Shown: positions 1 through 34,702, counted from the first letter of the stretch. The stretch is 38,335 nt of DNA from a virus (IMGVR_UViG_3300017998_000006), one strand, 5' to 3'. Notes: generated by a model from the sequence alone, not told the origin. Program-made: numbers and translations.

Positions 1-123
1 ATACAAGATCCAATTGTTTTTAATACGGGGATTAAAATGACTTGGACATGCGGCGTTACTGCGCGCGTGAGCTTCTCTGGCACCTGTCTGCTGTTCGCGC
101 AAGCATGGTACTACACTGAGAAC
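1..123. repeat. Terminal direct repeat, copy 1 (identical to 38213..38335)
   Basis: atacaagatccaattg...gcatggtactacactgagaac read at both ends of the window, 123/123 identical; signature of a closed circular (or terminally redundant) assembly. Confidence 0.97.
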
Positions 124-676: not shown

Positions 677-1078
677 TCAGGCTCGATAGAACCTGAAAGG
701 CCCGATTTCAGCCGTTTGCTTTTCAGCAGTGGCCCAGTCTGGCCGCATGGCAAACGAAGCGCTCTCGTACATCAAAGCACCCCCAGTAGGGTCATCCCCA
801 GGAACATCCACCACCGCACAACAGGCCAACCAGGCACGCCAATCTCCAACATTGCGCCGATCTGGTAGCCGGGCCGCGTTCGGATCTTTCGGGTTGAAAC
901 TCGAGAACTGATACGGCCACAGTATCACCGAGGCCGGATCGCTTCCACGAAAACCAGTGGCCGCGCGATTCAGAATCACGTGGAGTACGGCCCGCTTCGC
1001 ATCGTCCGATTGGCCCCGTGCCTCTCGCCAAAGACAAAGAGCAGCAAGGAAGGGCTGGTAGGAGTCCGCGGCGCCCAT
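677..1078 (-). CDS. SleB-like cell-wall hydrolase (Hydrolase_2 family), probable endolysin
   Basis: LAALCLWREARGQSDDAKRAVLHVILNRA...ILWPYQFSSFNP matches the SleB/CwlJ-type pattern (E-A-R-G-[QE], V-x-x-NR, QFS); last gene of the minus-strand block, directly after a holin-like gene. Confidence 0.85.
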   Translation of the reverse strand: MGAADSYQPFLAALCLWREARGQSDDAKRAVLHVILNRAATGFRGSDPASVILWPYQFSSFNPKDPNAARLPDRRNVGDWRAWLACCAVVDVPGDDPTGGALMYESASFAMRPDWATAEKQTAEIGPFRFYRA

Positions 1079-3554: not shown

Positions 3555-4076
3555 CTAAGCCGTGGCCCACCAGAGTAGCCCCAGCCCCGCCACGGCCAAG
3601 CCAACCCATACCCAGGGGCTTGTGCCCGAATCGCTCGAGAGATCTGGCAGCCCGTCCGTGAGATCCGCCATGATTCTATCCGAGGGTGTCGAATCCACGT
3701 TGATGCTTCCGAGGATGCTGGACGCGTAGGACTGCCCCGCCGCCAGATGTGTAGGCCCGGCATTGTAGGCCGCCAGCGCATCGCTCCAGTTCCCGAACTG
3801 CTGGTACAGCGAAGCCAGCAACGAAACGCCGCCCTCAACGTTCTGGGTGAGATCCGAGGCGTTGACGTTCAGCGCGGTTGCCGTCGCCGGCATGAGCTGG
3901 AAGACGCCAATCTCCCCGGCTGAGCCCACCGCGTTCTGGTTGAAGCTCGACTCCTTTTGCGCTACGGCAACAGCGATTGAAGGCGGTACGCCGAGCTGAT
4001 CCGCTACTGAGGTTATGAGGCTCTGAATGCTTGTGGAAGTCGCCCCGAGTCCCCGCCGCACTGTGCGCCAGTACAT
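3555..4076 (-). CDS. Lytic transglycosylase (SLT domain) with C-terminal membrane anchor
   Basis: AVAQKESSFNQNAVGSAGEIGVFQLMP and ALAAYNAGP = catalytic E-S and AYNAG motifs of family-1 lytic transglycosylases; C-terminal TM WVWVGLAVAGLGLLWWATA; N-terminal leader MYWRTVRRGLG. Confidence 0.85.
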   Translation of the reverse strand: MYWRTVRRGLGATSTSIQSLITSVADQLGVPPSIAVAVAQKESSFNQNAVGSAGEIGVFQLMPATATALNVNASDLTQNVEGGVSLLASLYQQFGNWSDALAAYNAGPTHLAAGQSYASSILGSINVDSTPSDRIMADLTDGLPDLSSDSGTSPWVWVGLAVAGLGLLWWATA

Positions 4077-4080
4077 GACG

Positions 4081-4623
4081 TCACTCCCCGGCCGGCCAGA
4101 GATACCCGATAAACCGGCTGTTGAAGTTCCCTGAGTTCTGCACGATCGCTATGGTCGTCAGAACCTTCAACTGGATCAGATCGGACGGTGCGAAGATCCG
4201 CGGCCGCGAGAACCGCCACGGAATCTCGTAGGATCCGATCGGCGCCAACTCCGCACCGAAACCCTGGACATAGCGCCCCGCGATCGCCAGAGCCGAAGGC
4301 GTCAAGGGGTTGTTCACATCCAGCGTCCAGATGATGTCACCGGAGCCAGGTATGAAGCCTCCCACTGGATCAAAGTTCCACATCACGCCCGTGAGCGCGA
4401 ACTGGTGGCCACTGGGTACCTGGTAGGACAGCAGCACGGTCAAGACTGTCGGAGCGGGCGCCGCCAGGGAGTTCGACACGTAAATGTCAATCGCGTTTTG
4501 CGACGGCGACAGCGACGGCCCGCAGACCGGATCGCGCAACCTTGGATCGCGCGGCAACATGGTAGCAACGGTGCTCACCTCTGGCACACCGTAAAGTGGC
4601 CTTCCTCTACGCATCGGACTCAT
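4081..4623 (-). CDS. Structural-module paralog (1 copy of the beta-module); putative capsid/vertex protein
   Basis: ATGA overlap with 4620..5219; module elements HQFALTGVMWNF / IIWTLDVNNP / RIFAPSDLIQLKVLT / SRFIGYLWP. The CDS is solid; the function is inferred. Confidence 0.55.
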   Translation of the reverse strand: MSPMRRGRPLYGVPEVSTVATMLPRDPRLRDPVCGPSLSPSQNAIDIYVSNSLAAPAPTVLTVLLSYQVPSGHQFALTGVMWNFDPVGGFIPGSGDIIWTLDVNNPLTPSALAIAGRYVQGFGAELAPIGSYEIPWRFSRPRIFAPSDLIQLKVLTTIAIVQNSGNFNSRFIGYLWPAGE

Positions 4624-5219
4624 TGGCAGCCCTCCTCACCAGCCGGCAATGGCTCCAGCGTGCCGATGACCAGCTCAACGCGCTGCTGAACTCCCACGAA
4701 TGCGCCGCCAGCATTTAGGTACCCTGCCGTGTTCCAGAGTTCAACCATGAACAGCCCCGAGCCGACGACCGGATAGGGCGCGCAGAGCAGGTTTGGAAAT
4801 GACCCCGCGATCACGAAGACGGCGCTGTAGTACGTCGGCTTGAAATTCGCAAGGAAAAGCGACGGCACCGGCTCATCGAACAGCTTGTGACCCAACGAGG
4901 TGTCCGTGATCTGCACGTTGAACTGAGGCGGGGTGATCGCCGTAAGGCCCGGAGGTAGCTCGCCACCAACTGACCCAACCAACTCCGCCGGCAAATAGAA
5001 TCCGTAAATCAGCGAGCCCGGCGTGATCTTCAGACCGTGCGATACATAGCCATTGGCCGGCATGACTTCACTTGGCGAATCCGGCGACTTGTACAGCCTC
5101 GGCCGGTAGCACAACTCGTCTGCCAACGGCGCCAGTTGCCGGATCGCGGCCGCATCGAACGATCCCCAGGTGTCGCGCGTCAAGGCGTCCAGACTCAGCG
5201 GGCTGATGGGCAGATTCAT
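4620..5219 (-). CDS. Structural-module paralog (1 copy)
   Basis: ATGA overlaps on both sides; FNVQITDTSLGHKLFDEPVPSLFLANF / PYPVVGSGLFMVELWN / RVELVIGTLEP. Confidence 0.55.
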   Translation of the reverse strand: MNLPISPLSLDALTRDTWGSFDAAAIRQLAPLADELCYRPRLYKSPDSPSEVMPANGYVSHGLKITPGSLIYGFYLPAELVGSVGGELPPGLTAITPPQFNVQITDTSLGHKLFDEPVPSLFLANFKPTYYSAVFVIAGSFPNLLCAPYPVVGSGLFMVELWNTAGYLNAGGAFVGVQQRVELVIGTLEPLPAGEEGCQ

Positions 5220-6178
5220 GGCAGCACCTTTACCCCAGTAAGCAACACCGGGAAGTCAAGCGGGGACTGGTTCGCATACGCGCCATCGGCACGCGTGAAA
5301 TCCAGGTACATGAACTGGCTTCGCTGGATGTAAATCTCCGGGTAGAAGAGCCCGGGATTCGACGGCCCGCAGAACTCGGCCAGCAGACCGTTTGTGAGGC
5401 TGCCACACGGGTACGATTCTCCCTGAACTCCAAAACCGTAAGCAGGTTGCCCAAGAGTCCCCTGACCCGGACGTCCAAACAGAATACTCGCATGCACCGG
5501 CAGATTCGAGTATGGCTTACCATCCGAATCACGCAGGGTGATTTCGACCTCGAAATAATCGGCGTTGTTGCCTTGCTGATTGTTGTCCGTGCCAGCCCGC
5601 CCACCCCTGAGAACAAAATCCGCATCGGGCTGCACGATGAAGGGAACGACCATCGGAGCCGTCGTGGTCACAGGCAACTGCAAGGCGATCACGGGATAGC
5701 AGTATGGCCGGATGGGGCCGTGCTGGGCCGCGTACGTAACCCCTTGGCGACTTCCCCATACGTAGAGTTTGACGCCCCGGAAATACAGCCGAACATTCGT
5801 GAGGGTGCCCAGCCCTGCGTTTTCCACGTCCACGTAGATGATGCCACCAGCCGGGTAGATACTCTGCGGGAATACCGGGGTGGGACTCCCCTGTTGACCA
5901 AAACAGTACGAATGCAAGGTTGCTGGAACCCTTTGCTGGCTGACGTAGTTCTCATCCGGCCCCGTGAAACTGGTTTTCAGAAACTGCAAGCCCGCCTGCA
6001 GGTTGCGAATGCCTTCTTGAATGCTCTGCTGTGGCTGCACTCTGAAAGCCCGCGACCGCAGAACAAATGGAGCGTCAAGATCGAGCACCAACGGCACCGC
6101 AGTTCTGATCTCACCAGGCGCGAGGCTCGCAATCCTCAACACGTAGTCCTGATGACGTTCCTGAAAACGAGGGTTCAT
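5216..6178 (-). CDS. Structural-module paralog with two tandem copies (double-jelly-roll-like?)
   Basis: Copy 1: DAPFVLRSRAFRV..YVSQQRVPATL..PQSIYPAGGIIYVDVEN..VRLYFRGVKLY. Copy 2: DADFVLRGGRAG..VEITLRDSDGKPYSNLPVHASILFG..PEIYIQRSQFMYLDF..FPVLLTGVKV. Confidence 0.6.
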   Translation of the reverse strand: MNPRFQERHQDYVLRIASLAPGEIRTAVPLVLDLDAPFVLRSRAFRVQPQQSIQEGIRNLQAGLQFLKTSFTGPDENYVSQQRVPATLHSYCFGQQGSPTPVFPQSIYPAGGIIYVDVENAGLGTLTNVRLYFRGVKLYVWGSRQGVTYAAQHGPIRPYCYPVIALQLPVTTTAPMVVPFIVQPDADFVLRGGRAGTDNNQQGNNADYFEVEITLRDSDGKPYSNLPVHASILFGRPGQGTLGQPAYGFGVQGESYPCGSLTNGLLAEFCGPSNPGLFYPEIYIQRSQFMYLDFTRADGAYANQSPLDFPVLLTGVKVLP

Positions 6179-6672
6179 AAAGCCCCCTCGTAACGCTTCA
6201 GGCCGTACAGCGTGATCTCAGGCAACTGAGCCGTGTTGTTCGGGTCGATGTTTTTGAAGGAGACCAAGATGCCTGACCCAGGGGGGCATTCAATCTCCGG
6301 CTCTATGGGCACCGGAAGACCACCAGCGGCGCTCCCGGACGGGTTGACATACTGAATGACGGGCACGTAGTCCGAGCTGAGCGCGTTTCCAAACGGATCG
6401 AAGAAGCGCACCAACAAGGTCACGGGGATGCCGCCAATACCAACGCCCAGATTCAACCGGACGCCCCGCCAGAGGAACTTCGAGCCGGTCTCAATCGCCA
6501 GGGGAATGTTTTCCTGAGTTGAAAGAACAGCGAGCGGTGAGTAAGCAGCATTGAACAGATCGTAGAAGTAGCTGAACGCCTGCTCCCGGCAGCCTCGTGG
6601 AGATGGATAAAACCACTGGGGCCGATAATCCACGCACCCGAGCACCGGAACGCCGATGAGAGAAGGACTCAT
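6175..6672 (-). CDS. Structural-module paralog (1 copy)
   Basis: SKFLWRGVRLNLG / LLVRFFDPFGNALSSDYVPVIQYV / PEIECPPGSGILVSFKN / LPEITLYGLKRY; ATGA overlaps on both sides. Confidence 0.55.
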   Translation of the reverse strand: MSPSLIGVPVLGCVDYRPQWFYPSPRGCREQAFSYFYDLFNAAYSPLAVLSTQENIPLAIETGSKFLWRGVRLNLGVGIGGIPVTLLVRFFDPFGNALSSDYVPVIQYVNPSGSAAGGLPVPIEPEIECPPGSGILVSFKNIDPNNTAQLPEITLYGLKRYEGAL

Positions 6673-7610
6673 GCTCCCACCTTTCGCCGTTTGACGCCTT
6701 CCACGTAGACTTGCAGGTACATTTGCCCTACGCCGGCGAAGTCCACCAACTGAAGGTCAAAGATGAGCGTGTCTTGGGCTTTCAGCCACCAGTCATGCGC
6801 GTACGGTGCCCCGCCGATGTAGCGAGCCACGTCGATGTAGTCATCCGAAAACACATGCCCTGAAGCCGCGCGGATCCTGGCCAGGATCTCTCCGCCCGTC
6901 ACAGTGGCATCCTGGGTTACGTTGAAATGGAAACGCCGCACCACGAAATCCGAGGCGCTTTCGATGGGAATCTCAATGGTTGCAAACTGCAAGATGTCCG
7001 CTGGACTCGTGAACTGCAAACCCTGGCCGATGACTGGGACCGCAGAGCAGTACGTGAACGGCGAATCCTCGTAGCCAGGTGGTGTCGCGGGGCCTGTGCC
7101 ATGCATCCAGCATGGTGCCAGGATGTTCTGGTTTGGATTGTCCAAATACTGCGGCGGCAGGGGCCCGGCCGCTTCGGAAGGCTTTTGCGACTTGACGTAG
7201 TAGCAGTAGGCCCCTTCGAACAGCATCTGAACGGCAGCGCTCAGCGCCGTCAGCCGAACCTGGATCTTGGACTGAGGCGGACACGGAACCTGTTTCGCCA
7301 TCAGCAGCCGGCCGGAGCCGTAGCCCGCGACCTCCTGCACAAGCTGGGACTGATTCAGGAACGGCTGTCCATTCGGCAGAATCACTTGCCAGTACGGCAC
7401 ATCACCGTTAGCCGAGATCGCGCGCAGCATCCAGGTTGTGTCGCCAGTGATCGTCTTCTCAATCGTCGTCTGGCCGCTTGTGAGATCCAAGCTCTGAAGC
7501 AAAAACGAATGGGGGATATAGACCGCAGACATTCCTCGAGGAGGTGTCGGGCGCCCGCACTTGCTGAGCACCCAATCGGCTTCGAGGATGAGCTGCGAGT
7601 CTTTTTTCAT
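6669..7610 (-). CDS. Structural-module paralog with two tandem copies (double-jelly-roll-like?)
   Basis: Copy 1: TTWMLRAISANG..WQVILPNGQPFLNQSQLVQEVAG..KQVPCPPQSKIQVRL..QMLFEGAYCY. Copy 2: SDFVVRRFHFNV..LARIRAASGHVFSDDYIDVARYIG..WWLKAQDTLIFDLQL..LQVYVEGVKR. Confidence 0.6.
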   Translation of the reverse strand: MKKDSQLILEADWVLSKCGRPTPPRGMSAVYIPHSFLLQSLDLTSGQTTIEKTITGDTTWMLRAISANGDVPYWQVILPNGQPFLNQSQLVQEVAGYGSGRLLMAKQVPCPPQSKIQVRLTALSAAVQMLFEGAYCYYVKSQKPSEAAGPLPPQYLDNPNQNILAPCWMHGTGPATPPGYEDSPFTYCSAVPVIGQGLQFTSPADILQFATIEIPIESASDFVVRRFHFNVTQDATVTGGEILARIRAASGHVFSDDYIDVARYIGGAPYAHDWWLKAQDTLIFDLQLVDFAGVGQMYLQVYVEGVKRRKVGA

Positions 7611-8120: not shown

Positions 8121-8432
8121 TCACCGCTTCCCCCGCATCTTCCGCCCGGTGATCTTCACCACGCCGTTGGGGAGCTTCGTAATCGTCACCGAGGCCATAT
8201 TCCGCAAGGTGGTGGACTTGCCGTTGACCTTGCGGGGGTTCGTTCGACCCACCGTTCTGTTGTAAGCAGCCGCGTAAATGCGCTCCCAGTACGCCTTCTT
8301 CGATTCAAAATCTGGTTCGAGCAAAGCATGAAACCGCACCGTCATTCGCGCTTTTGATGGCCTAATTTTACGCCGCCCAAGAACTGCATTGCGACCGTCA
8401 TCAGAGCCCTGTTGTCGAAAGAACTCTACCAT
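8121..8432 (-). CDS. Basic protein carrying the shared C-terminal module NPRKVxGxSTTLRNMASVTIxKLPNGVVKITGRKMxGKR (paralog B)
   Basis: GAGAGG 8 nt before ATG 8432 (MVEFFRQQG...; longest ORF reaches 8597); the last ~40 aa are near-identical to residues ~65-103 of 12970..13365. Confidence 0.65.
   Translation of the reverse strand: MVEFFRQQGSDDGRNAVLGRRKIRPSKARMTVRFHALLEPDFESKKAYWERIYAAAYNRTVGRTNPRKVNGKSTTLRNMASVTITKLPNGVVKITGRKMRGKR
8136..8242. repeat. Dispersed repeat, copy B (coding; pairs with 13069..13175)
   Basis: Hand alignment: 107 nt with 20 mismatches, including a 27-nt perfect block (8136..8162 = 13069..13095). Confidence 0.85.
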
Positions 8433-8661
8433 CCGAGCGCCTCTCTTCCTATGGTATACTCTCGCATATGGCTCTGAATGGATGGTGCGGAGGACGCCAC
8501 GGGAAATGGCGAAGCAATCTGGAGTTTTTCCGACGGATGGACGCGCAAGCCAGCGCGATACAACCATCGAAACATCGCCCGAATGACGCAAAAACACCCG
8601 ATAAACCCGCCATTCCAGGCCCCGTGTTCACGGACGGATCGAAGATAGACTTCTAGCCCCG

Positions 8662-9881: not shown

Positions 9882-10754
9882 CTAGAACGCCCCCATGCCA
9901 TCGCTGCCGGCGGCCACCGCGTTAGCGTTGACCCCGGACGAAGCCATGACCAGCGGGGTCGGCCCCCAGCCATCGGGGATTTCAATTTGCGCCGACTGCA
10001 GGCCATCCACGTACCGCTGTGGAGTCACCCAGTTCGACGCCATGTAGTCCCCGACACCCTGGAGGCTGGCATACTGGCCAAAGGGGGTGTAGTCCGTGAT
10101 CAGCCGGAGCACCACTTGAACCACCGCGCCGGCAAAGATGCCCTTTGCCGCCGCGTCATTCTTCATGATGCCCTTGGCTGCCCACGCCAAAAGTCCGCCG
10201 GCCGCCAGATTGGCGCCGTAGCCCAGAAACCCGGTGTTCTTGGTTCCGAGGACCATCTGCGCGCCCAGTTTCGAGCCGACAGCCCCGGCGATGATGTACA
10301 ACGCCTGGGCGACTTGCCCTCCCCAGGAGCCGCCCATGGGGTTGTGGTGACGGCGGCGCTGATAGCGCCGCGCCGGGTTGTGCCTTGCGTACGACCGGCG
10401 TCTCTTATGACGCCGGCCAGGATCGTTCGTGCGCTTGCGGCCAGGATCATTCGACCTGGACCGGGCGCGATGTGTTCGCGTTTTGGCCATTGCCTGTCTC
10501 CTTGACGCCGGTTTTCTCTTGGGATTCCCCAGCGTTAACAGCACTTGCTCTCCCAGATTGCGTCTCACCGGACGGGGAGAGGTGCGTCTCCGGTGAGCCG
10601 TGTTACGTTTCTGCGCGCGCGCACGATGAGTGCTGCGCTTCGCCTTGACAGCAGCCTGTCGGCGCTTGCCGCCGAAGCCAGCGCGGATCTGCTTCAGGCT
10701 GAACTTGCGCCGAGCCGGGTTGGCGATTGAAACTCGTCTGTGTGCGATAGCCAT
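9882..10754 (-). CDS. Arg-rich basic protein with Gly/Ala-rich hydrophobic C-terminal half (DNA-condensing / internal protein?)
   Basis: The first ~150 aa are dominated by R/K with repeated NP-x-[RK][RK] units (ANPARRK, GNPKRKP, NDPGRKRTNDPGRRHKRRR, HNPARRYQRRRHHNP); then GGQVAQALYIIAGAVGSKLGAQMVLG...LAAGGLLAWAAKGI. Confidence 0.55.
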   Translation of the reverse strand: MAIAHRRVSIANPARRKFSLKQIRAGFGGKRRQAAVKAKRSTHRARAQKRNTAHRRRTSPRPVRRNLGEQVLLTLGNPKRKPASRRQAMAKTRTHRARSRSNDPGRKRTNDPGRRHKRRRSYARHNPARRYQRRRHHNPMGGSWGGQVAQALYIIAGAVGSKLGAQMVLGTKNTGFLGYGANLAAGGLLAWAAKGIMKNDAAAKGIFAGAVVQVVLRLITDYTPFGQYASLQGVGDYMASNWVTPQRYVDGLQSAQIEIPDGWGPTPLVMASSGVNANAVAAGSDGMGAF

Positions 10755-11473: not shown

Positions 11474-12970
11474 TCACGGTGCGCTCACGAGCACCTCGTT
11501 GACCGGGTGACGAACCTCGATATGATCCGGCCCTACCCTGTCCGCAAAATTGTGCGCCCGGCGCCACTCATAGACCTCAGCGCCGTGCTGGTACGCTTCC
11601 GGCGCATTCTGGTAGGCATACGTGCCGTCCCAGGTCCCTTTACCGTAGAGCGGATGTCGGTGTGGGAACATCAAATGCTTGGCGTCTACAATGACGCCAT
11701 CCCGCCGCGCGACATCCGTAAAATCGTTGTCCGCGAACATGCCCCAGTACTCGGGATAGAACAGCCGCCCATAGCGTTCGTAGTACGGTCTCGTGACGAT
11801 GTTGAATGTCATCAGCGAATTGTTGCCACCCGTCGAAATCCAGACCGCAGCCTCAGCGCTCAAATCCGGCAGAACCTTGAGCAGCTCAGTATCCCAGTGG
11901 GGAGGCGGAAACCAGTCGTCCGCTACAGTAATCAAAACCTTACCCGTTGCGACAGCGCCAGCCGCATTGAACGCCGTCACCGCCGTGTGCCGATCATGGT
12001 TGCTGATCTTCTTGAAATGCTCCCACGGCACGCTTGATCGTTGAAGCTCGACCGTCTGCTCCGTGCATAGAATGTACTCACAGTCTTCGGGGTTGTCAGC
12101 CAGGTCGTACCACTCCTGGCAGGCGTTCCGCCAGCCATCGGGGAATCTCAATGTGGCATGGCACAGCGAGAACAGCGGGATTCCAGACCCGAACAACTTC
12201 CGCCGCGGACGCGGCGCGCGAACCATCGGCTCAGCGGCCAGATCCACGGTTTCAAACTGATCAACCGGCTCCGGTATCGGCGCCGTCTTCAAGTGCGGAA
12301 CTTTGACTTGCGGATCGACCAGAATCAACGCCCCGCCCCGTTCCCGAGCGTGGATGCAGAACGCAATATCCTCTCCAGTCATGCCCCACCGCAGGTTCTC
12401 CCCGCAAAATGGCACGAATGGATTGGCCCCTGCTTTCGCCAGCATCCCGTAGCGCATCAGCACCACCGGAAATCCGGTGTAGCCAACCTCCAAGAGCCGA
12501 TTCTCCCTGGCCGCCGTCTTCATCTCCGACGCATCGAAAGGCAGCACGGTGTAATCCGGCCGCAACCTGCCACATGAGACGATGGGGGGCATTCCCTGCC
12601 TCATGTTCGGCTCAGTCCAGCACCAGCCCGCTACCATGTCCGCTTTCGGAAACTCGTCCAGATCCTTTTTCAGCCGCGCGAAATGCTCCGGCAAGACGAT
12701 ATTGTCGTCATCGATCCACAAAACGTAGTCGATGGGTGTTGGAGAATGGAGCATCTCAAGCACCATGCTGGAACGCGTCACGAAGACCGAAGAGGAGTAC
12801 CCGAACAGCGGAGCCGGGTCGTACCCGCTCGACAGCAGCGACATGAACAGGTTGGTCCAGTTCGTCACCCAAGCCGAGGAGAAGGACTCACCCGGCATAC
12901 AGATGCCGATCGATACCCGCCTCGCCGGCGTGCCGTCGTTACCGTTCGTCTTGCCCAAGGTAAGCTCCAT
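11474..12970 (-). CDS. Two-domain glycosyltransferase (GT2-like N-domain + second GT-like domain)
   Basis: N-domain: RVSIGICMPGESF, DxD-type VLWIDDDNIVLP, GEDIAFCIHARERGG..KVPHL. C-domain: LFSLCHATLRFP.., ITVADDWFPPPHWD, ADNDFTDVA. Confidence 0.75.
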   Translation of the reverse strand: MELTLGKTNGNDGTPARRVSIGICMPGESFSSAWVTNWTNLFMSLLSSGYDPAPLFGYSSSVFVTRSSMVLEMLHSPTPIDYVLWIDDDNIVLPEHFARLKKDLDEFPKADMVAGWCWTEPNMRQGMPPIVSCGRLRPDYTVLPFDASEMKTAARENRLLEVGYTGFPVVLMRYGMLAKAGANPFVPFCGENLRWGMTGEDIAFCIHARERGGALILVDPQVKVPHLKTAPIPEPVDQFETVDLAAEPMVRAPRPRRKLFGSGIPLFSLCHATLRFPDGWRNACQEWYDLADNPEDCEYILCTEQTVELQRSSVPWEHFKKISNHDRHTAVTAFNAAGAVATGKVLITVADDWFPPPHWDTELLKVLPDLSAEAAVWISTGGNNSLMTFNIVTRPYYERYGRLFYPEYWGMFADNDFTDVARRDGVIVDAKHLMFPHRHPLYGKGTWDGTYAYQNAPEAYQHGAEVYEWRRAHNFADRVGPDHIEVRHPVNEVLVSAP

Positions 12971-13365
12971 TAGCGCTTTCCCATCTTCCGCTTGCTGTAG
13001 AACCGCTTCTCAGCGCGCCGCTTGAGGATCTTCTTCCGCTGGGCAGCCGAGTAGTTCCGTTTGCCCGCCATCTTCCGCCCGGTGATCTTCACCACCCCAT
13101 TGGGAAGCTTTCGGATGGTCACTGAGGCCATGTTTCGCAAGGTGGTGGAACGACCACGGACCTTGCGCGGATTCGAAATCGCATAGCGTTTGCCACCATC
13201 CACAACAGAGAGCGTTTCGCCAGGCTTCAGATGCGGCCGGCCAATATGAATTTGGCCTTCTCGAATCTTCTGCTCAACGACTTGCTTGGCATCGCTCCCC
13301 TCGTAATCGCGGTAGTATCGAATCGCCGCCGCCTTGCTCACGAAATGACTTGTGCCGTACGTCAT
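12970..13365 (-). CDS. Basic protein carrying the shared NPRKV..STTLRNMASVTI..NGVVKITGRKM module (paralog A) plus a Lys/Arg tail
   Basis: SNPRKVRGRSTTLRNMASVTIRKLPNGVVKITGRKMAGKR then NYSAAQRKKILKRRAEKRFYSKRKMGKR; ATGA-coupled upstream, TAATG-coupled to the glycosyltransferase. Confidence 0.7.
   Translation of the reverse strand: MTYGTSHFVSKAAAIRYYRDYEGSDAKQVVEQKIREGQIHIGRPHLKPGETLSVVDGGKRYAISNPRKVRGRSTTLRNMASVTIRKLPNGVVKITGRKMAGKRNYSAAQRKKILKRRAEKRFYSKRKMGKR
13069..13175. repeat. Dispersed repeat, copy A (coding; pairs with 8136..8242)
   Basis: See 8136..8242; 87/107 identical by hand alignment. Confidence 0.85.
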
Positions 13366-13754
13366 GGCTTCGCCCCCTGCGCGTCCAAGAACCTGTCCAG
13401 CCGGTTGCGCAGCCTTTCGATTTCACCAGAGATATCGTTCAGCTTTACTGGAACCCCCGAGAAATCCCTGATCGCAGTTCGCATCTGGTCCAGTTCTTTC
13501 TCGATCGCCATCAGCCGCAGTTCCCGCACTTCCCACTCCCGAACGTTGCGGTTGATGATCTTTACCGCCGAAAATATGACGGTGAACAGAGAGATGACTT
13601 GAAGCACGACGATGAGCCAGTCCCGAAACTCCAGAACAGAGCCGCCAACCGCGCCGTGGTCTGTGGACTGAGACCAAGCAAGGAAGGGAAGCCACATCAC
13701 AAACGCAAACAGAACCGCTGGAAATCGGAGTTTCGTTATGCACTGCCGCTGCAT
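13362..13754 (-). CDS. Membrane protein with coiled-coil C-terminal half
   Basis: TM segments FPAVLFAFVMWLPFLAW and WLIVVLQVISLFTVIFSAV, then REWEVRELRLMAIEKELDQMRTAIRD..IERLRNRLDRF. Confidence 0.65.
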   Translation of the reverse strand: MQRQCITKLRFPAVLFAFVMWLPFLAWSQSTDHGAVGGSVLEFRDWLIVVLQVISLFTVIFSAVKIINRNVREWEVRELRLMAIEKELDQMRTAIRDFSGVPVKLNDISGEIERLRNRLDRFLDAQGAKP

Positions 13755-15286
13755 CAGTTTCGTATCCCTTCCGGTTCGACCGAGTACTCACCGCCAGCAA
13801 AAGCCAGCGCTTGGTTCATCACGTCGTACAGTAGCCGAGGTTTCGGCGCGCGCCTTTCACCAAAGCCGTAGGACATGCGCGTCTTGCCCTCTTCGGAGAG
13901 CTTGTGGTGGTAGGATGCTTCCCCGCCCTGGTCTCCCAAGTGGTCTTTGGCCGTGAAGTACCAGAGCTTCACCACTTCCCCCAGGTCCTCAATGTCGTGA
14001 TACGGCTTCCCTATTCCAAACGCTGAGAGTTTCACCGCCTGGTCCCCGCCTTCGATGTAGAGCTGCGTTCCGCGCTCATTCGAGCACAGCACCGCGTCTC
14101 CGAACCGTTCCAAGTCCACCAGACCCCCGTCGTTCGCGCGCACAGTCAGCTTCTCCAGCTCGCCCAGGGCGGCCAGGTGCGCGTGGTAGTGAACTGGCTT
14201 TTCGACTTCCACCAGCTCACCGGACGGCCGACCGTGGAACTTCTGGTACATCGAGGCCGCCGCGTCTGCGGGGTTCCGTGTCGCCTTCTTCTTGAGCTTC
14301 ACACCCAGCTTCATGAACTCCTGGCCCAGTATGGCAGCCATGGTAGGGTCCACGTTCTTCCGCCGCCCTTTCGCGGCCGCTCGCTGCAATTCCGCCGCGC
14401 CTTCTGGGGTACGCCTTTTGGAGGCCGCGCACACTGCGTTAGGATCGTCCACATCGCCGCGCCTTGATACAGCCGCAACACACCGCGCGAAAGAACTCTG
14501 ACCCGGGTTCAAAGTCTTCTGGACAAGCTCGTCGCGCCGTTCCAAAAGCCTTTTCATCTTTTTAGCATCCGTAGTTCCCAGAATCTCTCGGTTGATGGAG
14601 TCAACCTCAGCTCCGAGCCTCGAATGCGGACCCCTGTTTTTGCGATTCCACGATGTGATGAAGCCTTTCACGTCCTTTTCCGAGTCAAACAGCGAATCAC
14701 CACCACCCAAGGATGTACGCCAGCCCGCCTCGTCCGACCCGTACACCCGGTATCCTTTATAGGTCTGCGAGATCTCGCGCGCCGCAGTATGTGCGGGAGC
14801 ATACCGCGACGCGCTGCGGGCGCTGGCGGGCATGGTTTGACGCGGAGACGTGGCTTTCGAGGAGAAAGGCCAGAGGTTACGGCGGGAAGACTTCAAATCC
14901 GCAATCCGCCGCGCGTACTCGATTCGTTTCGACCTCGGGGTGGCATGGATCATCGCGCCAGCTTCCCCGTGCTCGCCTGAGTGCTGCTGTTGCGAGACAG
15001 CCCAAGCGTACTGCGCAAAAGTCGGTACCCCGCCTTTCGCCGGGTTGTACTGATTCGTCGGAACTCCGGCGCCTATCCGCTTGAATGCCACCGCCAGCTT
15101 CCCGTTACAGGACCGGCACCCATAGGCGAGGTTCTGAAGCTCTCCGTTTGCTTCGTTCCCGTCCAAATGCATAACCCCCAACTGACGACGAGAGCCGCAC
15201 AGAACGCAGCGGCGCTCACCTCGTACCGTGTTCTGAGCGCGATAGCGTTTCGCCCGATCGGTTAGGTTGGCACGCTGAGCCATCAT
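13754..15286 (-). CDS. 510-aa protein with N-terminal HNH-type zinc-finger nuclease motif fused to a large unknown domain
   Basis: Start MMAQRANL at 15286 is ATGA-coupled to 15283..15579; RRCVLCGSRRQLGVMHLDGNEANGELQNLAYGCRSCN fits C-x2-C..H-x-D/N..N..C-x2-C HNH; the remainder has no motif I recognise. Confidence 0.6.
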   Translation of the reverse strand: MMAQRANLTDRAKRYRAQNTVRGERRCVLCGSRRQLGVMHLDGNEANGELQNLAYGCRSCNGKLAVAFKRIGAGVPTNQYNPAKGGVPTFAQYAWAVSQQQHSGEHGEAGAMIHATPRSKRIEYARRIADLKSSRRNLWPFSSKATSPRQTMPASARSASRYAPAHTAAREISQTYKGYRVYGSDEAGWRTSLGGGDSLFDSEKDVKGFITSWNRKNRGPHSRLGAEVDSINREILGTTDAKKMKRLLERRDELVQKTLNPGQSSFARCVAAVSRRGDVDDPNAVCAASKRRTPEGAAELQRAAAKGRRKNVDPTMAAILGQEFMKLGVKLKKKATRNPADAAASMYQKFHGRPSGELVEVEKPVHYHAHLAALGELEKLTVRANDGGLVDLERFGDAVLCSNERGTQLYIEGGDQAVKLSAFGIGKPYHDIEDLGEVVKLWYFTAKDHLGDQGGEASYHHKLSEEGKTRMSYGFGERRAPKPRLLYDVMNQALAFAGGEYSVEPEGIRN

Positions 15287-18301: not shown

Positions 18302-19041
18302 GACATCACCGCCACGAGTGCCAAGGCCGCCGCCAGCAAAACCCAAGACGGAAGGCTCGACAGCTCGCTCAATGCGGAATTTGCCGCCCCTGTCACAAGT
18401 GAAGACACCGAATCTGGCACCACATTGGGGTCCTGGCTTATGGGGTCGCGATAAGCATTGAACCAGTTCCAGCACTGGCCCGCCGCCGGCCCGCCTGGCC
18501 AGGGAGAATCCGCCGTAGCCTTCCAGGTACACGCCCCAGACTGCCGATCCGAGATGCACCGCTTACCGGCGTTCCCCGTGGATGGGTTGCCGCACATGTT
18601 CACCAGCGTGGCCCAGATCGCATCGAAGTTTGCCAACGCCGTTTTCTGTTGGCTTTCAGTCCGCGGAGCCGCCACGCTGAAGTAGGTTGAGATGTTCTGC
18701 CGAAGCAGCGGTTCCGCCTGATTTGCCCACCCGGAAGTTTCGATGCACGTCTGTCCACACCCGGAGTTTTTGATAAGATCTGCTGCCAGCAGCGTAATCC
18801 CCACAATCGCCGCGCCAACAATCGGAATGGCGACGGCCGTAGAGACTCCAAGTATGCCAGCGGCCGTGGCCCCCGTTGCGGCCGCTACAGCCGGCGCCGC
18901 TGCCGATCCGAAGGCCTGGGTGTACTGTGCATCCGTGGCCGCCGTGCCCATCCCGCGACTCCGGTGTCTCGATTGCACAGCCCGGCCAAAGCCTTGCACC
19001 GGCGAGACGAACGCGCGCGAATGGGTCCGAATGTACATCAT
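18298..19041 (-). CDS. Two-TM, Cys-rich membrane protein with SRGMG leader
   Basis: MMYIRTHSRAFVSPVQGFGRAVQSRHRSRGMGTAATD; TM ILGVSTAVAIPIVGAAIVGITLLAADLI; 8 Cys in the middle domain (GCGQTC, MCGNPS, KRCISDRQSGAC, GQCWNW); C-terminal TM WVLLAAALALVAVMS. Confidence 0.65.
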   Translation of the reverse strand: MMYIRTHSRAFVSPVQGFGRAVQSRHRSRGMGTAATDAQYTQAFGSAAAPAVAAATGATAAGILGVSTAVAIPIVGAAIVGITLLAADLIKNSGCGQTCIETSGWANQAEPLLRQNISTYFSVAAPRTESQQKTALANFDAIWATLVNMCGNPSTGNAGKRCISDRQSGACTWKATADSPWPGGPAAGQCWNWFNAYRDPISQDPNVVPDSVSSLVTGAANSALSELSSLPSWVLLAAALALVAVMS

Positions 19042-20300: not shown

Positions 20301-21866
20301 ATGGCAAAAACCAAGCCGCAAAGACCCAAAACCAGCCGAGTAGCTGAATTCCCGGCGCCTTCGAGTGACCCTGGAGCCGCAGACACCGCCGTCGCAGCCG
20401 AAGAACTGCCCGAACCGCAGCCACCGCCGAAAGCTGCGCAGAAGTCCGGCCAGTCCAAGCAAAAAGAACGGGACTTCGGCCCAGACCCGCTGCCAAAGAT
20501 CCAGGAATTTTTTGAACGATGCTCTGGTATCCGCCAACAGGACTGGCAAGCACGCGCCAAGGTCAAAGTCTACCGCTTAAAGCCGATCTACGATATGCTG
20601 ATCGGCTCGAAACGCAAGTACATTCGCATCTACGAGCTTGGCGCACCAACCGAGGAGCAGATCAAGCACGACTGCGGCAGCGGCCGCTACCGGCTCTACC
20701 TCAACTTCAAAACAGACGGAGCCGACCACGAAAAAGAACTCGCCTCCGTCGAGATCGATATTCTCGATCCGGCGTTCCCGCCTAACCTACCAGTAGGTGA
20801 TTGGCTGAACGATGAGGCAAACAGAGAGTGGAGGTGGGCGAGGCCCCTGCTCGAAGCACGCGAAGCGGAGGCAGCCGCCAAAGTCGCAAATAAAAACGAA
20901 CGCGCGGCGGCCAGCAGCTCTGGAAACATGCTCGAAGCCGTCCAGGTCCTCGGCGAACTCCAGGACCGCGCCGAGGAACGCGCGCGCGAACGAATCGACA
21001 GCGGACGGCCCCAAACTTGGGACCCTGCTCAGCAGCTTGCCACCGTGGTAACCGCAGCAAAGGACATCGCCGGCGCGCTCAAAGCCACCCCAGAAAATCC
21101 CATCCCAGCTTTCATATCCGAGCAAATGACCGCGATGCGCACCGAGCTTGCGGACGCGCGGCGGCGCAGTGATACGCTCATGGACAAGCTGTTGGATATG
21201 GCCCGAGCCCCGCAGCCCCAGCAGCAGAACGGCCTAAGCGCCGTCAAGGAAATCATGCAGGGCATCAAAGACTTCCTGCCCACCGTCCGGGATCTTTGGC
21301 CGAATGCGCCCGAGGATATCGCAGAGCGCGTGGTCAAATCGAAGATGGGACCGTGGCAGGAATTCTTCGCCCCGGTGCTTCCCAGACTCGTTGACGCGCT
21401 CGCTCCGATCATGCCTGCGATGGCAGCCGGTTTGATGGGAGGCAACGGACCAGCAAGACCGCCAGGAATGCCACCGCAAGCCCGTCTGCCCAACCCAGCC
21501 ATGCCCCAACCCAGCCCCCAGTCCCCGCCGCAAGCGCAGCACGCTCCAAACCTCGACGAAATGCTTTTGAACGCTCTGACCAGTGACCGCGACGGCGGAG
21601 AATTCGCGGACTCGCTCGTCATGCTCTTCGGCCAGCAAGGACAACTGATGTACCGCCAGGCCGCTTCACTCGGAGAGCAGGGCTTGCTTACGTTGATTCA
21701 GCAACGGCCCGTCTGGAACCAACTTGGACCGCTGCAATCCAAGGTGCCAGCCTTCGTTCATGAGTTCATCGAATGGGGCCAGGAGCCACAGGAAGAGATG
21801 GCGGAAGGCGCAGAACCGCCCGCCGCCGGTGAGGTGGTGGACCTCACGGGAGAAGCCACACAATGA
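20301..21866 (+). CDS. 521-aa early protein, unknown function (coiled-coil, Pro/Gln-rich), VVDLTGE tail
   Basis: GAGG 11 nt before ATG; first gene of the rightward block; C-terminus AAGEVVDLTGEATQ*; no NTPase or polymerase motif seen. Confidence 0.7.
   Translation: MAKTKPQRPKTSRVAEFPAPSSDPGAADTAVAAEELPEPQPPPKAAQKSGQSKQKERDFGPDPLPKIQEFFERCSGIRQQDWQARAKVKVYRLKPIYDMLIGSKRKYIRIYELGAPTEEQIKHDCGSGRYRLYLNFKTDGADHEKELASVEIDILDPAFPPNLPVGDWLNDEANREWRWARPLLEAREAEAAAKVANKNERAAASSSGNMLEAVQVLGELQDRAEERARERIDSGRPQTWDPAQQLATVVTAAKDIAGALKATPENPIPAFISEQMTAMRTELADARRRSDTLMDKLLDMARAPQPQQQNGLSAVKEIMQGIKDFLPTVRDLWPNAPEDIAERVVKSKMGPWQEFFAPVLPRLVDALAPIMPAMAAGLMGGNGPARPPGMPPQARLPNPAMPQPSPQSPPQAQHAPNLDEMLLNALTSDRDGGEFADSLVMLFGQQGQLMYRQAASLGEQGLLTLIQQRPVWNQLGPLQSKVPAFVHEFIEWGQEPQEEMAEGAEPPAAGEVVDLTGEATQ
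21834..21854 (+). repeat. 21-nt gene-end element, copy 1 (gtggtggacctcacgggagaa)
   Basis: Encodes VVDLTGE and contains GGAG 8-10 nt before the next ATG. Confidence 0.85.
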
Positions 21867-24866: not shown

Positions 24867-25424
24867 TCACGAAGTCTTTTTTGCGTGCAACTCTTCAACC
24901 GCCCGCTGCACGTCGCTCGGGGTGACTGGCTTCAAGGTGTCCCGGCCTGATACCGGAGGCGGAGCTAATTGACGGCGGGCCATCTCTTCTTCCTGCTGCG
25001 CCTCCCATCTGTCCCACTGAGCCTTTTCCCATAAGTGTTTTTTGTGACCGCCGTACTCGCAATACGGAGAGCCGGGCTCGCACAGCGGACACGCTGGAGC
25101 CAACAGGCCGCGCGTAACCAAATCAGCCACGCGCTGATCACTGGCCTCGAATCGCTCTTTATCGGTCTGCCGTTCTGCCGTGGCGCGCTCTGATTCGTCG
25201 CGGATTAGGCAGGCCGCTCCCATTAGATCAAAATCCGTAGGGCAGAACGGACTGCTGAGCCGCCAGCGGTCAACAATGGCCATCATGGGAACACCCTGCT
25301 TATCCGCGGCTTCTTCAAGGCCTTTGGCTAAAGCCTGTACTCCTGCCAAATCTCGCGGATAATTCTGGCAGCGTTCAAAGCACGCCGCCAGAGTTTCAGC
25401 GATCGGCTCCTCAGTTTCGGTCAT
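24867..25424 (-). CDS. Hypothetical protein (last gene of the leftward island)
   Basis: ATGA-coupled to 25421..26572; 185 aa, acidic, CPLCEPGSPYCEYGGH Cys cluster. Confidence 0.65.
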   Translation of the reverse strand: MTETEEPIAETLAACFERCQNYPRDLAGVQALAKGLEEAADKQGVPMMAIVDRWRLSSPFCPTDFDLMGAACLIRDESERATAERQTDKERFEASDQRVADLVTRGLLAPACPLCEPGSPYCEYGGHKKHLWEKAQWDRWEAQQEEEMARRQLAPPPVSGRDTLKPVTPSDVQRAVEELHAKKTS

Positions 25425-29539: not shown

Positions 29540-29943
29540 ACGTCCACTTCGAACCCAACGTACCCCAGACTTTGGCCCTTCAGGAACCAAGAGCCGAGCA
29601 GTTCGGAGACTACGAGATCACATACACGCTCACCGACGGCCGGCTACTGAAAGTCTCCAAGGCCGTCGCCGCGAAAATCAACGAGTTGGACTTGCAGCCC
29701 GGCGAAACCTTTGGGATCTGCAAGCAGATGGTCTTCAATGAGCAGCGCAGGCGCGACACGCCAGTCTGGACGGTCTGGTTAACCCCGGAGACCGAGAAGG
29801 CCAGGACCAAGCAGGAGACACAGCCGCCCATGACGCTGGCCGACGTGAAGCGACCGGGGAAGGTCCGTAGCATCCGCAAAAAAGGACCAGAGCAGCAAAC
29901 CTTGATATTCGACCGAGACCTTTTGGAACTGGTAATGCTATGA
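29536..29943 (+). CDS. Hypothetical protein
   Basis: ATGA-coupled on both sides; 135 aa with protein-like composition. Confidence 0.65.
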   Translation: MNVHFEPNVPQTLALQEPRAEQFGDYEITYTLTDGRLLKVSKAVAAKINELDLQPGETFGICKQMVFNEQRRRDTPVWTVWLTPETEKARTKQETQPPMTLADVKRPGKVRSIRKKGPEQQTLIFDRDLLELVML

Positions 29944-30998
29944 AATCCCCGCAAAACTGGGCCATTTATTGTCTCAAAGATCCACGCACCGGCACAGTTC
30001 GTTATGTCGGCTGGACTTCACAAACACCCACAAGGCGTATGACATGCCATCTTTCAGAAGCACTTCACGAGTCGCGACAAGCACATACATTCAAATCCAG
30101 ATGGATTCGCCTCCTGCTAACCACAGGGGTTCGACCTGTCATGGAAGTTCTGGAAACAGGCATAGGCGATTCCTGGGCATCAGCAGAACAACGGTGGATA
30201 GCATTCTTTCGTGGTAACGGGGCGGCTCTCACAAATGGATCAGACGGAGGAGAAGGCAATTTGGGCTACAGTCCACCGCCAGAGGTTCGAGAGAAGATCT
30301 CACGCGCAAACAAGGGCTGCAAACGTTCGCCTGAGCATATAGCCAAAATGGCAGCAGCGGCTCGGCTGGCAAACACTGGGAGGCACCGTTCGCCGGAAAT
30401 CACAGAAAAAATTGCGAGCCAGCTACGTGGAGTTCCAAGACCTCCTGAAGTGTGGGAAAACTGCCGCAAAGCCTCAAAAGGCCGGATCGTATCAAAAGAA
30501 ACCCGCCAAAAACTCTCCGATTGTCGAAGGGGAAAGCCTCTATCTTTGGAAACTCGGGCGAGAATGAGTGAATCGGCCAAACACAAACCGCCCATGAGTG
30601 CTGAAACTCGCGCTCTCTTATCTGCAAAACTGAAAGGTCGCACATGCGGAACTCCAGAAGGACGTAGGAGCCGAATCGAAAAGATGCGGGGCCGCATAAA
30701 TCCCAAAGCGATAGCCGCCATGATCGCGGCAAACACCGGCTCCAAACACCCACCCGAAACAGCAGCTAAAAATGCGGCAACCCGTGCTAGCTGGCCCCCC
30801 GAATATCGGGCCGAAGTTGGTAGGCGAATCAGCGAGAAGTGCAAAGGCCGAAAACATTCAGCCGAAACACGGGAAAAACTCGCCGCATGGCATCGGGGCC
30901 GTAAAGCTTCTCCAGAAACGCTCATCAGAATGAGCGAATCTGCCAAGCGGAAGAGTTCAGCCAGCAACAACGGGTTGCTGAGCCTGTGGGAGCGCTGA
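29940..30998 (+). CDS. GIY-YIG homing endonuclease with ~10 NUMOD3-type repeats
   Basis: WAIYCLKDPRTGTVRYVGWTS (GIY-x10-YVG), ...AEQRWIAFF..LTNGSDGG; then repeated S/P-x-E-x-R-x-K-h-S-x-x-x-K/R-G units (PEVREKISRANKG, PEHIAKMAAAA, PEITEKIASQLRG, KETRQKLSDCRRG, LETRARMSESAKH, AETRALLSAKLKG, AETREKLAAWHRG, PETLIRMSESAKR). Confidence 0.85.
   Translation: MKSPQNWAIYCLKDPRTGTVRYVGWTSQTPTRRMTCHLSEALHESRQAHTFKSRWIRLLLTTGVRPVMEVLETGIGDSWASAEQRWIAFFRGNGAALTNGSDGGEGNLGYSPPPEVREKISRANKGCKRSPEHIAKMAAAARLANTGRHRSPEITEKIASQLRGVPRPPEVWENCRKASKGRIVSKETRQKLSDCRRGKPLSLETRARMSESAKHKPPMSAETRALLSAKLKGRTCGTPEGRRSRIEKMRGRINPKAIAAMIAANTGSKHPPETAAKNAATRASWPPEYRAEVGRRISEKCKGRKHSAETREKLAAWHRGRKASPETLIRMSESAKRKSSASNNGLLSLWER
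29940..30998 (+). mobile_element. Free-standing homing-endonuclease gene (selfish mobile gene)
   Basis: GIY-YIG/NUMOD3 architecture as in phage Seg/Tev-type endonucleases; its 3' 39 nt are duplicated 281 nt downstream. Confidence 0.5.
30960..30998 (+). repeat. 39-nt direct repeat, copy 1 (3' end of the endonuclease gene)
   Basis: gccagcaacaacgggttgctgagcctgtgggagcgctga; 36/39 identical to 31241..31279, with the last 27 nt perfect. Confidence 0.9.
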
Positions 30999-31279
30999 TG
31001 AACTCCACCGAAGCAGAAATGGCTCTTGACGATATCCAAAGAGTTCTTGGAGTTGCCAAACGGGTCATCGCAGCGCAGTTATCCCGACGAGCAGCAACCT
31101 GCACACCCACCTGTAACGCCAATCTCGTACCCGGCATGGCACACAATTGCGCACTGGGAGTGCGGGTACGGGAAATTGTGGACCGCCTAGTGTGGGAGAC
31201 ACCAGCGGCAAGACGTGAAATAGAAGATGTTTTAATTTCCGCCAGCAACTCAGGGTTGCTGAGCCTGTGGGAGCGCTGA
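30998..31279 (+). CDS. Hypothetical protein sharing its last 12 residues with the endonuclease
   Basis: TGATG-coupled; MNSTEAEMALDD...; C-terminus ASNSGLLSLWER* versus ASNNGLLSLWER* in 29940..30998. Confidence 0.6.
   Translation: MNSTEAEMALDDIQRVLGVAKRVIAAQLSRRAATCTPTCNANLVPGMAHNCALGVRVREIVDRLVWETPAARREIEDVLISASNSGLLSLWER
31241..31279 (+). repeat. 39-nt direct repeat, copy 2
   Basis: gccagcaactcagggttgctgagcctgtgggagcgctga. Confidence 0.9.
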
Positions 31280-33774: not shown

Positions 33775-33805
33775 TGAAGCCCCTTTCAGGCGTATACTTA
33801 TAGCC

Positions 33806-34690: not shown

Positions 34691-34702
34691 GAGAATTTTA
34701 AA

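Follow-up and report, generated by a model that had tools for sequence, protein, structure and literature searches.

What kind of virus carries five consecutive genes that seem to be built from repeats of one and the same beta-strand module, and what could their products form? The question is raised by IMGVR_UViG_3300017998_000006, a stretch of 38,335 nucleotides (nt) given as a single strand and called the window hereafter, in which all positions are counted from the first letter. A preliminary description of this DNA had pointed to five genes at 4081-7610, here named gA to gE, and had proposed that they hold seven copies of the module, possibly single and double jelly rolls, and that a 238-amino-acid (aa) protein encoded nearby, cap238, follows the same order of elements. 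The coordinates of the five genes agree with the open reading frames (ORFs) called in the window. gA, gB and gC are paralogs in which one jelly-roll module, ~140 aa long, occurs five times (2+1+2); of the two further copies that had been proposed, that of gE is retained as a weak sixth and that of gD is not.

Direct pairwise BLASTP comparison of the six proteins is marginal (the best pair, gB-gC, reaches an E-value of 0.007), and for this reason relatives were collected and profile methods were used. Scans of IMG/VR and JGI data yielded 92 related loci with their flanks, containing 6,390 ORFs. In this set, a single-sequence phmmer search with gB retrieves the orthologs of gA (E 1.8e-7) and of gC (E 7.6e-5), and iterated searches started from gA, gB or gC end in one superfamily. 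When alignments of orthologs are compared with hhalign, gB matches the N-terminal module of gC with 99% probability (E 5e-19) and the C-terminal one with 96% (E 4e-9), the two gC modules match each other with 93%, and gB matches both residues 175-313 of gA (C module; 97%, E 2e-11) and residues 43-137 (N module; 97%, E 5e-10). Profiles specific to single modules, with n and c denoting the N and C copies, give E-values of 2e-20 for gB-gCn, 3e-13 for gB-gCc, 1e-12 for gB-gAc and 6e-12 for gB-gAn, and reveal the internal repeat of gC (gCn-gCc) at 1.5e-9. The modules of gA are far more weakly related to those of gC (6e-6 to 4.5e-3), gB being the hub of the family. The all-against-all alignment that the preliminary description had called for connects the copies of gA, gB and gC through gB and leaves gD outside. 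A module hidden Markov model (HMM) finds two domains in 48 of 61 gA proteins and in 85 of 94 gC proteins, and one domain in 83 of 86 gB proteins. The four sequence elements, (a) to (d), by which the module had originally been recognised fall in register across the five-module alignment and lie on predicted strands of the gC model described below.

For the remaining proteins, the comparison with shuffled controls, likewise suggested at the outset, separates gE from gD. Against the merged module profile gE obtains an hhalign score of 24.8, collinear over its residues 30-180, whereas block-shuffled controls average 13.2 (standard deviation 2.7) and none of 60 reaches that value. In addition, weak matches to the module HMM occur in 15 of 60 gE members, against 17 of 5950 background ORFs (0.3%). 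These sequence comparisons make it probable that gE holds a sixth, strongly diverged copy of the module. In the case of gD, four of 60 shuffles reach the score of the protein itself and weak matches are found in three of 62 members, and its reading as a module copy is not supported. cap238 has no sequence similarity to the module in profile comparison, shuffles or module HMM searches, so that its supposed kinship reduces to a fold class that it appears to share.

The fold of the module has been approached through gC. An AlphaFold2 model, computed from an alignment of 76 sequences, has a predicted local distance difference test (pLDDT) score of 85.4 and a predicted template-modelling (pTM) score of 0.87. 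It consists of two all-beta halves (residues 1-145 and 150-320), each with four strands, a short helix and three strands in the same order, and its C module carries a variable, low-confidence loop at residues 235-275. A Foldseek search of the PDB returns 47 matches at E<=1e-3, mostly to double-jelly-roll proteins. Among the top ones are B345 of Sulfolobus turreted icosahedral virus (STIV; E 1.3e-6, probability 1.0), the DUF2961 protein 4kq7 (2.5e-6) and P3 of PRD1 (6e-5), and B345 and P3 are both among the capsid proteins which had been named beforehand for such a search; the head of the list also contains GH172, the capsid proteins of iridovirus, PR772 and PBCV-1, PNGase F and peptidylglycine alpha-hydroxylating monooxygenase (PHM). 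This set corresponds to the double-jelly-roll class as it has been defined (PMC8812541), and gC is predicted to consist of two tandem jelly rolls of that fold class. At the sequence level, the gC profile has no match among PDB sequences at E<=10, and the fold matches in BFVD are mixed, including CUB-like and tailed-phage minor tail proteins. While the initial guess of a jelly roll is therefore borne out for gC, that of a capsomer geometry is not: against all double-jelly-roll capsid proteins the model gives TM-scores of 0.2-0.29 (~0.25) with a root-mean-square deviation (rmsd) of ~17 Å, which means that the placement of the barrels differs from that in capsid trimers or escapes the model. As far as the model can tell, barrels stacked like those of STIV A223 and the side-by-side geometry of a capsomer are equally possible.

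Homologs of gC form at least 156 clusters in metagenomes, and the window's relatives, contigs of ~38-43 kb, come from peat, permafrost and soil. Synteny of the block extends over at least 29 distinct genomes from metagenomes, most of which share the order p183 (transmembrane)-p290-cap238-small genes-gA-gB-gC-gD-gE-(gB2)-SLT, where SLT is a lytic transglycosylase gene and gB2 a second gB-like gene that follows gE in 10 of the 29 genomes and is absent from the window; a few divergent lineages rearrange this order locally. Median pairwise identities among the 29 genomes are 42.5% for gC, 40% for gA, 38% for cap238, 34% for gB and 32% for gE. Synteny and a conservation comparable to that of cap238 indicate that gA-gE are core virion genes rather than fast-evolving accessories. 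Other genes within the block are lineage-specific, namely an FG-GAP repeat protein in L011 (10804-12033), an Ig-like He_PIG protein in L004 (6924-7433) and, in L003 (5897-6922), an inserted 341-aa ORF with no Pfam match that is taken as lectin-like; these insertions look like exchangeable host-recognition parts. A scan of GTDB with gC found nothing, and one with cap238 found only two virus-sized contigs, binned in metagenome-assembled genomes (MAGs) of Phycisphaerales and Terriglobia, which are weak evidence for a host and not prophages. A seeming integration site on a 536-kb contig (P0017) was set aside, as the viral piece begins in mid-operon at the contig end; the contig is probably chimeric and unusable.

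The way in which the modules are distributed over polypeptide chains varies in nature. In L093 and L094 gA is represented by two genes, one matching its N half and one its C half; the gap between them is 1.1 kb in L093, and 8 nt with stops in both frames in L094. In P0381 and the L008 lineage, a gA-type double module carries gD as an N-terminal fusion partner. The module architectures found in the 29 genomes are 2+1+2 (14 genomes), 2+1+2+1 (10), 1+2+2 (two) and, in one genome each, 1+1+1+2, 2+2+1 and 2+2+2. A general rule by which five modules would make a hetero-pentamer was discarded, given that the module count is five in 18 genomes and six in 11. An apparent split of gC in L094 (4180-4330, on the Terriglobia MAG contig) was also rejected: it is a frameshift, with the conserved linker in the other frame and an intact gC in L093, and probably a sequencing error. 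Two clusters of seemingly 'conserved' ORFs (196 and 127 aa) proved to be shadows of the gC and gD genes on the antisense strand. In L093 the two gA genes have between them an ORF of 209 aa (13419-14048) whose C-terminal motif, KLKLWVILKGLYLQG, is like the last strand of the module, and which may be a further divergent module paralog.

gD is the most conserved protein of the block (median pairwise identity 54% in the 29 genomes; 350 homolog clusters), and in relatives a loop near residues 78-96 takes insertions of 120-420 aa (P0416, P0424, P0428 and P0429). It would stand apart from the module family as a highly conserved beta protein whose insertion loop is exposed. A profile of gD residues 52-100 gave repeated weak matches to He_PIG Ig-like repeats in giant cellular adhesins (P0459, P0502 and P0474), with whole-library E-values against these adhesins down to 2e-9. 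These matches would hint at an Ig-like gD, but He_PIG did not recur in a Pfam scan of 45 gD members; the similarity may reflect a shared beta-hairpin motif.

As the preliminary description had stated, all four internal junctions of gA-gE are ATGA overlaps, which was verified in the sequence, and a Shine-Dalgarno-like site is present for each of the five genes. By their coordinates, ORFs elsewhere in the genome form at least eight more 4-nt overlaps (for example at 13362-13365, 19038-19041, 21863-21866, 25421-25424 and 29940-29943), so that this coupling is a general style of the genome and not special to gA-gE. In the relatives the same junctions are tight, yet they are of the ATGA type in merely 7-11 of 28-29. 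The SLT gene closes the block in the window, in L001 and in 9 of 23 other mapped relatives, and its product also matches virion-associated lysin families of PHROGs.

To which kind of element does the block belong? A perfect 123-nt direct repeat at both ends of the window (1-123 = 38213-38335) indicates a complete genome of 38,212 bp, circular or terminally redundant. A Pfam scan of ~70 window ORFs and a PHROGs scan of 20 of the larger ones produced solid matches for five proteins only, namely SLT, a SleB-type hydrolase, a GT2 glycosyltransferase, an FkbM methyltransferase and a NUMOD3 endonuclease. These scans contained no terminase, portal or HK97 capsid protein, no tail protein, tape measure, tube or sheath, no polymerase or integrase, no packaging ATPase of the FtsK/HerA or A32-like type, and no match for gA-gE, cap238, p290 or p183. 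A Walker A motif is absent from every credible ORF of the complete genome, the 92 related loci show no conserved P-loop protein up to 10 kb from the block, and scans of the window for tRNAs and Rfam families found none. No relative was detected by blastn and tblastn among 50,697 deposited phage records (INPHARED, August 2025; tblastn with gA, gC, gD and cap238 at a cut-off of E<=1), tblastn of gC against PLSDB plasmids gave nothing at E<=0.1, and literature searches retrieved no description of this virus group. The window appears to be a tail-less double-stranded DNA (dsDNA) virus of soil or peat bacteria, from a lineage that is seemingly undescribed and devoid of all the usual hallmark genes. 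That the host is bacterial is read from SLT, the SleB-type hydrolase and the Shine-Dalgarno sites. Many proteins encoded at 15.5-20.2 kb carry a C-terminal transmembrane helix, some of them after Thr/Pro-rich linkers, and the virion would have an internal membrane.

The best candidate for the shell is cap238, of which more than 260 homolog clusters exist. The best fold matches of its AlphaFold2 model are all jelly-roll capsid proteins, and all are non-significant (the top one, 6oj0_Z of Sulfolobus polyhedral virus 1, SPV1, has an E-value of 0.066 and a probability of 0.51); no HK97-fold protein is matched. cap238 is the probable major shell protein. Its stop codon is followed by a stem-loop of -33 kcal/mol in 50 nt and -44 kcal/mol in 96 nt, likely an attenuator or transcript stabiliser that parts cap238 from the downstream genes. 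In the 29 genomes, hairpins of -20 kcal/mol or stronger within 50 nt occur 3' of p290 in 93%, of cap238 in 72%, of gD in 41%, of gE in 25% and of gA, gB or gC in 7-21%. The codon bias of cap238 is also the highest of all large genes (GC content at third codon positions, GC3, 0.79; effective number of codons, ENC, 42, against 49 for gA, 51 for gB and 53 for gC). Both the hairpin pattern and the codon bias suggest an output of cap238 in excess of that of gA-gE. Two further proteins may contribute to the particle. p290, whose gene lies directly upstream of cap238 in every mapped genome reaching that far (median identity 40%), is a candidate DNA-condensing, membrane-associated or tethering core protein, to judge from its composition, and p104, with the strongest codon bias in the genome (ENC 34), is a possible membrane anchor for assembly.

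The account that we tentatively prefer, with a probability somewhat short of even, is that gA-gE are equimolar minor-capsid or five-fold-vertex proteins of a tail-less, membrane-containing icosahedral virus in which cap238 forms the shell. According to this model, cap238, made in excess from a gene with strong hairpins on either side, would build the lattice, while read-through transcripts would supply gA-gE at lower amounts and stop-start ATGA coupling would render these roughly equimolar. The five proteins would co-assemble around the five-fold axes, with one copy each per asymmetric unit, as a penton base and stacked turret or spike layers like STIV A223, C381 and A55. Assembly of the vertex would be tied to the internal membrane, and the vertex, together with the adjacent membrane-anchored transglycosylase, would act in attachment and cell-wall penetration. 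With no packaging ATPase, the arginine-rich p290 would presumably condense the DNA during co-assembly, as in SPV1. The gD-gA fusions of L008 and P0381 argue for a physical partnership in the manner of Rosetta-stone evidence, alongside which the split gA of L093/L094 can be cited, and the gD loop insertions, the FG-GAP and He_PIG insertions and the anchored SLT give the block a host-interaction character.

Several points weigh against this assignment. The location of gA-gE in the virion, the stoichiometry, the membrane and the mode of DNA condensation are all deduced steps. The best fold matches of gC are major capsid proteins and not penton or turret proteins, and the conservation of gA and gC, close to that of cap238, would fit shell proteins too. 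Hairpins and codon bias are indirect proxies of abundance, and the bias of gD equals that of cap238. The fold assignment of cap238 is not statistically significant, and the structure models cover gC and cap238, the folds of the other block proteins following by homology at most. A more far-reaching proposal would see here a new high-rank lineage of bacterial viruses, in the form of an ATPase-less membrane icosahedron with an SPV1-like cap238 shell, a p290 nucleoprotein core and a hetero-oligomeric ring or turret of five or six different but homologous jelly-roll modules, whose double jelly rolls arose within the genome by duplication and fusion. Taken as a whole, such a combination is possible but rather unlikely.

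The same evidence on fold and conservation bears on the first alternative, in which the role of major capsid protein falls to gA and gC. The capsomers, of the true double-jelly-roll kind, would be homo- or hetero-trimers, or else gB, gB2 or gE would join gA and gC in a 2+2+1+1 pseudo-hexamer; the single-jelly-roll penton, for which PRD1, PM2 and STIV offer parallels, would be gB, and cap238 would be left with a minor, cementing or membrane-facing part. With 313-320 aa, gA and gC match prokaryotic double-jelly-roll capsid proteins in size, their C modules have a variable tower-like loop, and their conservation equals that of cap238. They also adjoin a single-module paralog, the 165-aa gB that lies between them. 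However, the superposition of gC on known capsomers is poor (TM ~0.25, rmsd ~17 Å) despite a pTM of 0.87, and its BFVD matches are heterogeneous. In one clade two separate genes stand in for gA, the codon bias of gA and gC is below that of cap238 and no hairpins bracket them. Equimolar coupling would be ill-suited to a major capsid to penton ratio well above 10, and the genome has no FtsK/HerA-type ATPase. This arrangement is on balance unlikely, although it is the strongest competitor of the vertex model.

It has also been considered that gA-gE could be carbohydrate-binding or carbohydrate-active proteins, virion-associated or secreted, of the GH172/DUF2961 or PNGase F-like kind, serving as spikes that bind receptors or act as depolymerases rather than building the shell. 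Among the top matches of gC there are indeed DUF2961/GH172, PNGase F and PHM, with E-values close to those of capsid proteins, the BFVD matches include CUB-like and tailed-phage minor-tail proteins, and glycosyltransferases are conserved in the same block. Nevertheless, such a role is improbable: gA-gE match no glycoside-hydrolase or lectin family of Pfam, and the gC profile no PDB sequence, while a constant order of five to six paralogs that fuse and split and are moderately and uniformly conserved is atypical for fast-evolving receptor binders or enzymes, and the adhesin-like genes inserted elsewhere in the block suit receptor binding better. Finally, an extremely divergent tailed phage, with the five genes as a baseplate or tail-fibre module, which is the outcome that the preliminary description had named as refuting its proposal, is very improbable even though a lysin-type gene comes after the block, as it often does after tail genes, a few BFVD matches are labelled 'minor tail protein' and fibre-like repeats occur in proteins at 33.6-36.7 kb, since this complete genome holds no terminase, portal, HK97 or tail part detectable with Pfam or PHROGs and no Walker A motif, tblastn finds nothing in the phage records, and the best-conserved structural protein is a jelly-roll-like sandwich and not of the HK97 fold.

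Table. Positions of the jelly-roll block and of other features in the 38,335-nt window.
Feature	Position	Strand	Remarks
SleB-type cell-wall hydrolase	677-1078	-	Pfam Hydrolase_2, E 5e-10
SLT lytic transglycosylase with C-terminal membrane anchor	3555-4076	-	Pfam SLT, E 5e-23
gE, 180 aa	4081-4623	-	
gD, 199 aa	4620-5219	-	Conserved N-terminal arm and beta-rich core
gC, 320 aa	5216-6178	-	Two tandem modules; N module ~5741-6178, C module ~5219-5740
gB, 165 aa	6175-6672	-	One jelly-roll module; sequence hub of the module family
gA, 313 aa	6669-7610	-	Two tandem modules; N module ~7116-7553, C module ~6672-7115
p104, small protein with C-terminal transmembrane helix	8662-8976	-	Between cap238 and gA
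GC-rich 15-bp stem-loop	9009-9052	-	Directly after the cap238 stop; read from the sequence
cap238, 238 aa	9073-9789	-	Single beta-sandwich with disordered 40-aa N-arm (AlphaFold2, pLDDT 77)
p290	9882-10754	-	Arginine-rich N half of ~130 aa; glycine/alanine-rich hydrophobic C half (from the translation)
GT2 glycosyltransferase	11474-12970		Pfam/PHROGs; inside the structural block, and kept there in most mapped relatives
p601, ORF of 601 aa	13754-15559	-	Start probably near Met92; HNH-like zinc-finger segment and basic region
Proteins of 159, 416, 247 and 374 aa	15283-20162	-	Each with a single C-terminal transmembrane helix
NUMOD3-type homing endonuclease gene	29940-30998	+	GC3 0.48, low against the rest of the genome
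Three consecutive proteins	33602-36734	+	N-terminal signal-peptide-like segments

Several features outside the block complete the picture of the genome (see Table). The SleB-type hydrolase is adjoined by small ORFs with one or two transmembrane segments at 1338-1999, with which it likely forms a lysis cassette distinct from the virion-type SLT. Among the C-tail-anchored proteins, that of 416 aa contains an Ig-like region and a Thr/Pro-rich linker, and that of 374 aa has a weak match to a transglutaminase core (cysteine protease-like). The C-terminal domain of p601 (~170 aa, FHGRP...YIEGGDQ...WYFT-KDHL) is conserved in all lineages and matches no known family; IMG/VR scans with p601 and with p521 singly recovered one close relative and no others. 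The NUMOD3 gene, the 3' end of which is spanned by a 43-nt repeat (30956-30998 and 31237-31279), is probably a recent mobile insertion. Secretion signals, such as those suggested by the three proteins at 33602-36734, are unusual among phage structural proteins. The last of the three contains three 51-nt tandem repeats (36207-36410) encoding NTNSG-QGM-LTTG units, which resemble the head repeats of fibres or adhesins. Finally, a 119-nt direct repeat of 80% identity (8124-8242 and 13057-13175) marks the paralogous small genes p158 (8121-8597) and p131 (12970-13365), which flank the capsid block on both sides, and one of which has a weak Arc-like repressor match.

The family bears on the history of the double jelly roll itself. 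To our knowledge, no sequence-level trace of a jelly-roll duplication exists in known viruses; the single and tandem forms described here can still be aligned, with E-values down to 2e-20. The origin of the double jelly roll is debated between a fusion of viral single-jelly-roll genes and the capture of a cellular (DUF2961) enzyme (PMC8812541). If duplication and fusion did take place within these genomes, they would provide a living example of the scenario that the cellular-capture hypothesis calls into question, and since gA is found both fused and as two genes, the direction and the consequences of fusion are open to study by phylogeny and by expression of both forms. The group is widespread in peat and soil, with hundreds of protein clusters and dozens of contigs of ~38-43 kb. 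Should particles be confirmed, tail-less dsDNA viruses of bacteria would reach about twice their usual genome size, and bacteria would gain a counterpart to the archaeal virions of the STIV or SPV1 type.

Among known systems, STIV resembles the window virus in having jelly rolls throughout the virion, and no PDB structure matches the fold of gC better than its B345. In STIV, B345, A223 and C381, which form the shell, the penton base and the turret, contain 2+2+3 jelly rolls; an asymmetric unit holds 15 shell subunits and a single copy of each vertex protein, and a small transmembrane protein anchors the vertex proteins to the membrane (PMC10551542). STIV also has a glycosylated capsid protein, a virus-encoded glycosyltransferase and an internal membrane (PMC10551542). 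It differs by its archaeal host, a genome of 17 kb, an A32-like packaging ATPase and jelly-roll proteins without mutual sequence similarity, whereas the window virus combines sequence-detectable paralogs in one coupled operon with a bacterial host, 38 kb of DNA and no ATPase. In the case of SPV1 (Portogloboviridae), the circular dsDNA is enclosed, as a nucleoprotein core, by a membrane and a single-jelly-roll shell; packaging ATPase and polymerase are missing, and the few genes that can be recognised include those for a glycosyltransferase and a methyltransferase (PMC8459092). One SPV1 capsid protein heads the fold matches of cap238, though without significance (E 0.066), and the remaining likeness, which is at the genome level only, concerns the terminal repeat, the lack of an ATPase, the C-tail-anchored proteins and the arginine-rich p290. 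Unlike the window virus, SPV1 has a hyperthermophilic archaeal host, a 20-kb genome and no array of tandem jelly-roll paralogs.

Viruses of the PRD1 type (Tectiviridae, Corticoviridae and Autolykiviridae; P3/P31/P5) share with the proposed virion the lack of a tail, the internal membrane and the coexistence of double- and single-jelly-roll proteins. In PRD1, the penton is paralogous to the N-domain of the spike, and P7 is a virion-associated, membrane-bound transglycosylase. These viruses have one double-jelly-roll protein and not two, most of them possess an FtsK/HerA ATPase, and the window virus shows neither sequence similarity to them (tblastn against all deposited phages) nor more than low TM-scores. 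In addition, the genomes of prokaryotic double-jelly-roll viruses are below 20 kb (PMC8812541). On the other hand, the Flavobacterium-infecting, lipid-containing phage (FLiP) and the Odin-type group are also without a packaging ATPase (PMC8812541), so that its absence does not disqualify a virus from double-jelly-roll kinship.

The Helvetiavirae (P23-77 VP16/VP17; SH1 and HCIV-1 VP4/VP7) have adjacent paralogous genes for vertical single jelly rolls that build hetero-oligomeric, pseudo-hexameric capsomers, and they are central to the debate on the fusion of single into double jelly rolls (PMC8812541). They differ in having two single-module proteins with no fused forms and a packaging ATPase, and no sequence link or significant fold link connects them to the window virus. 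In the Picornavirales, paralogous jelly-roll domains are separate (picornavirus VP1-3), arranged as 2+1 (comovirus L+S) or fully fused (nepovirus coat). There, chain fusion varies as it does between gAn + gAc and gA, an analogy that implies no homology with these RNA viruses of eukaryotes, whose horizontal barrels form a pseudo-T=3 lattice. The impression in the preliminary description that an array of so many paralogs is new to phages holds for bacterial viruses, among which no such precedent was met, but has to be qualified by the many jelly rolls of archaeal STIV. Jelly-roll virion proteins, and sets of many such domains in STIV, are thus already known; the novelty lies in an operon whose single and tandem jelly-roll members can be recognised as paralogs by sequence and occur naturally in fused and unfused forms.

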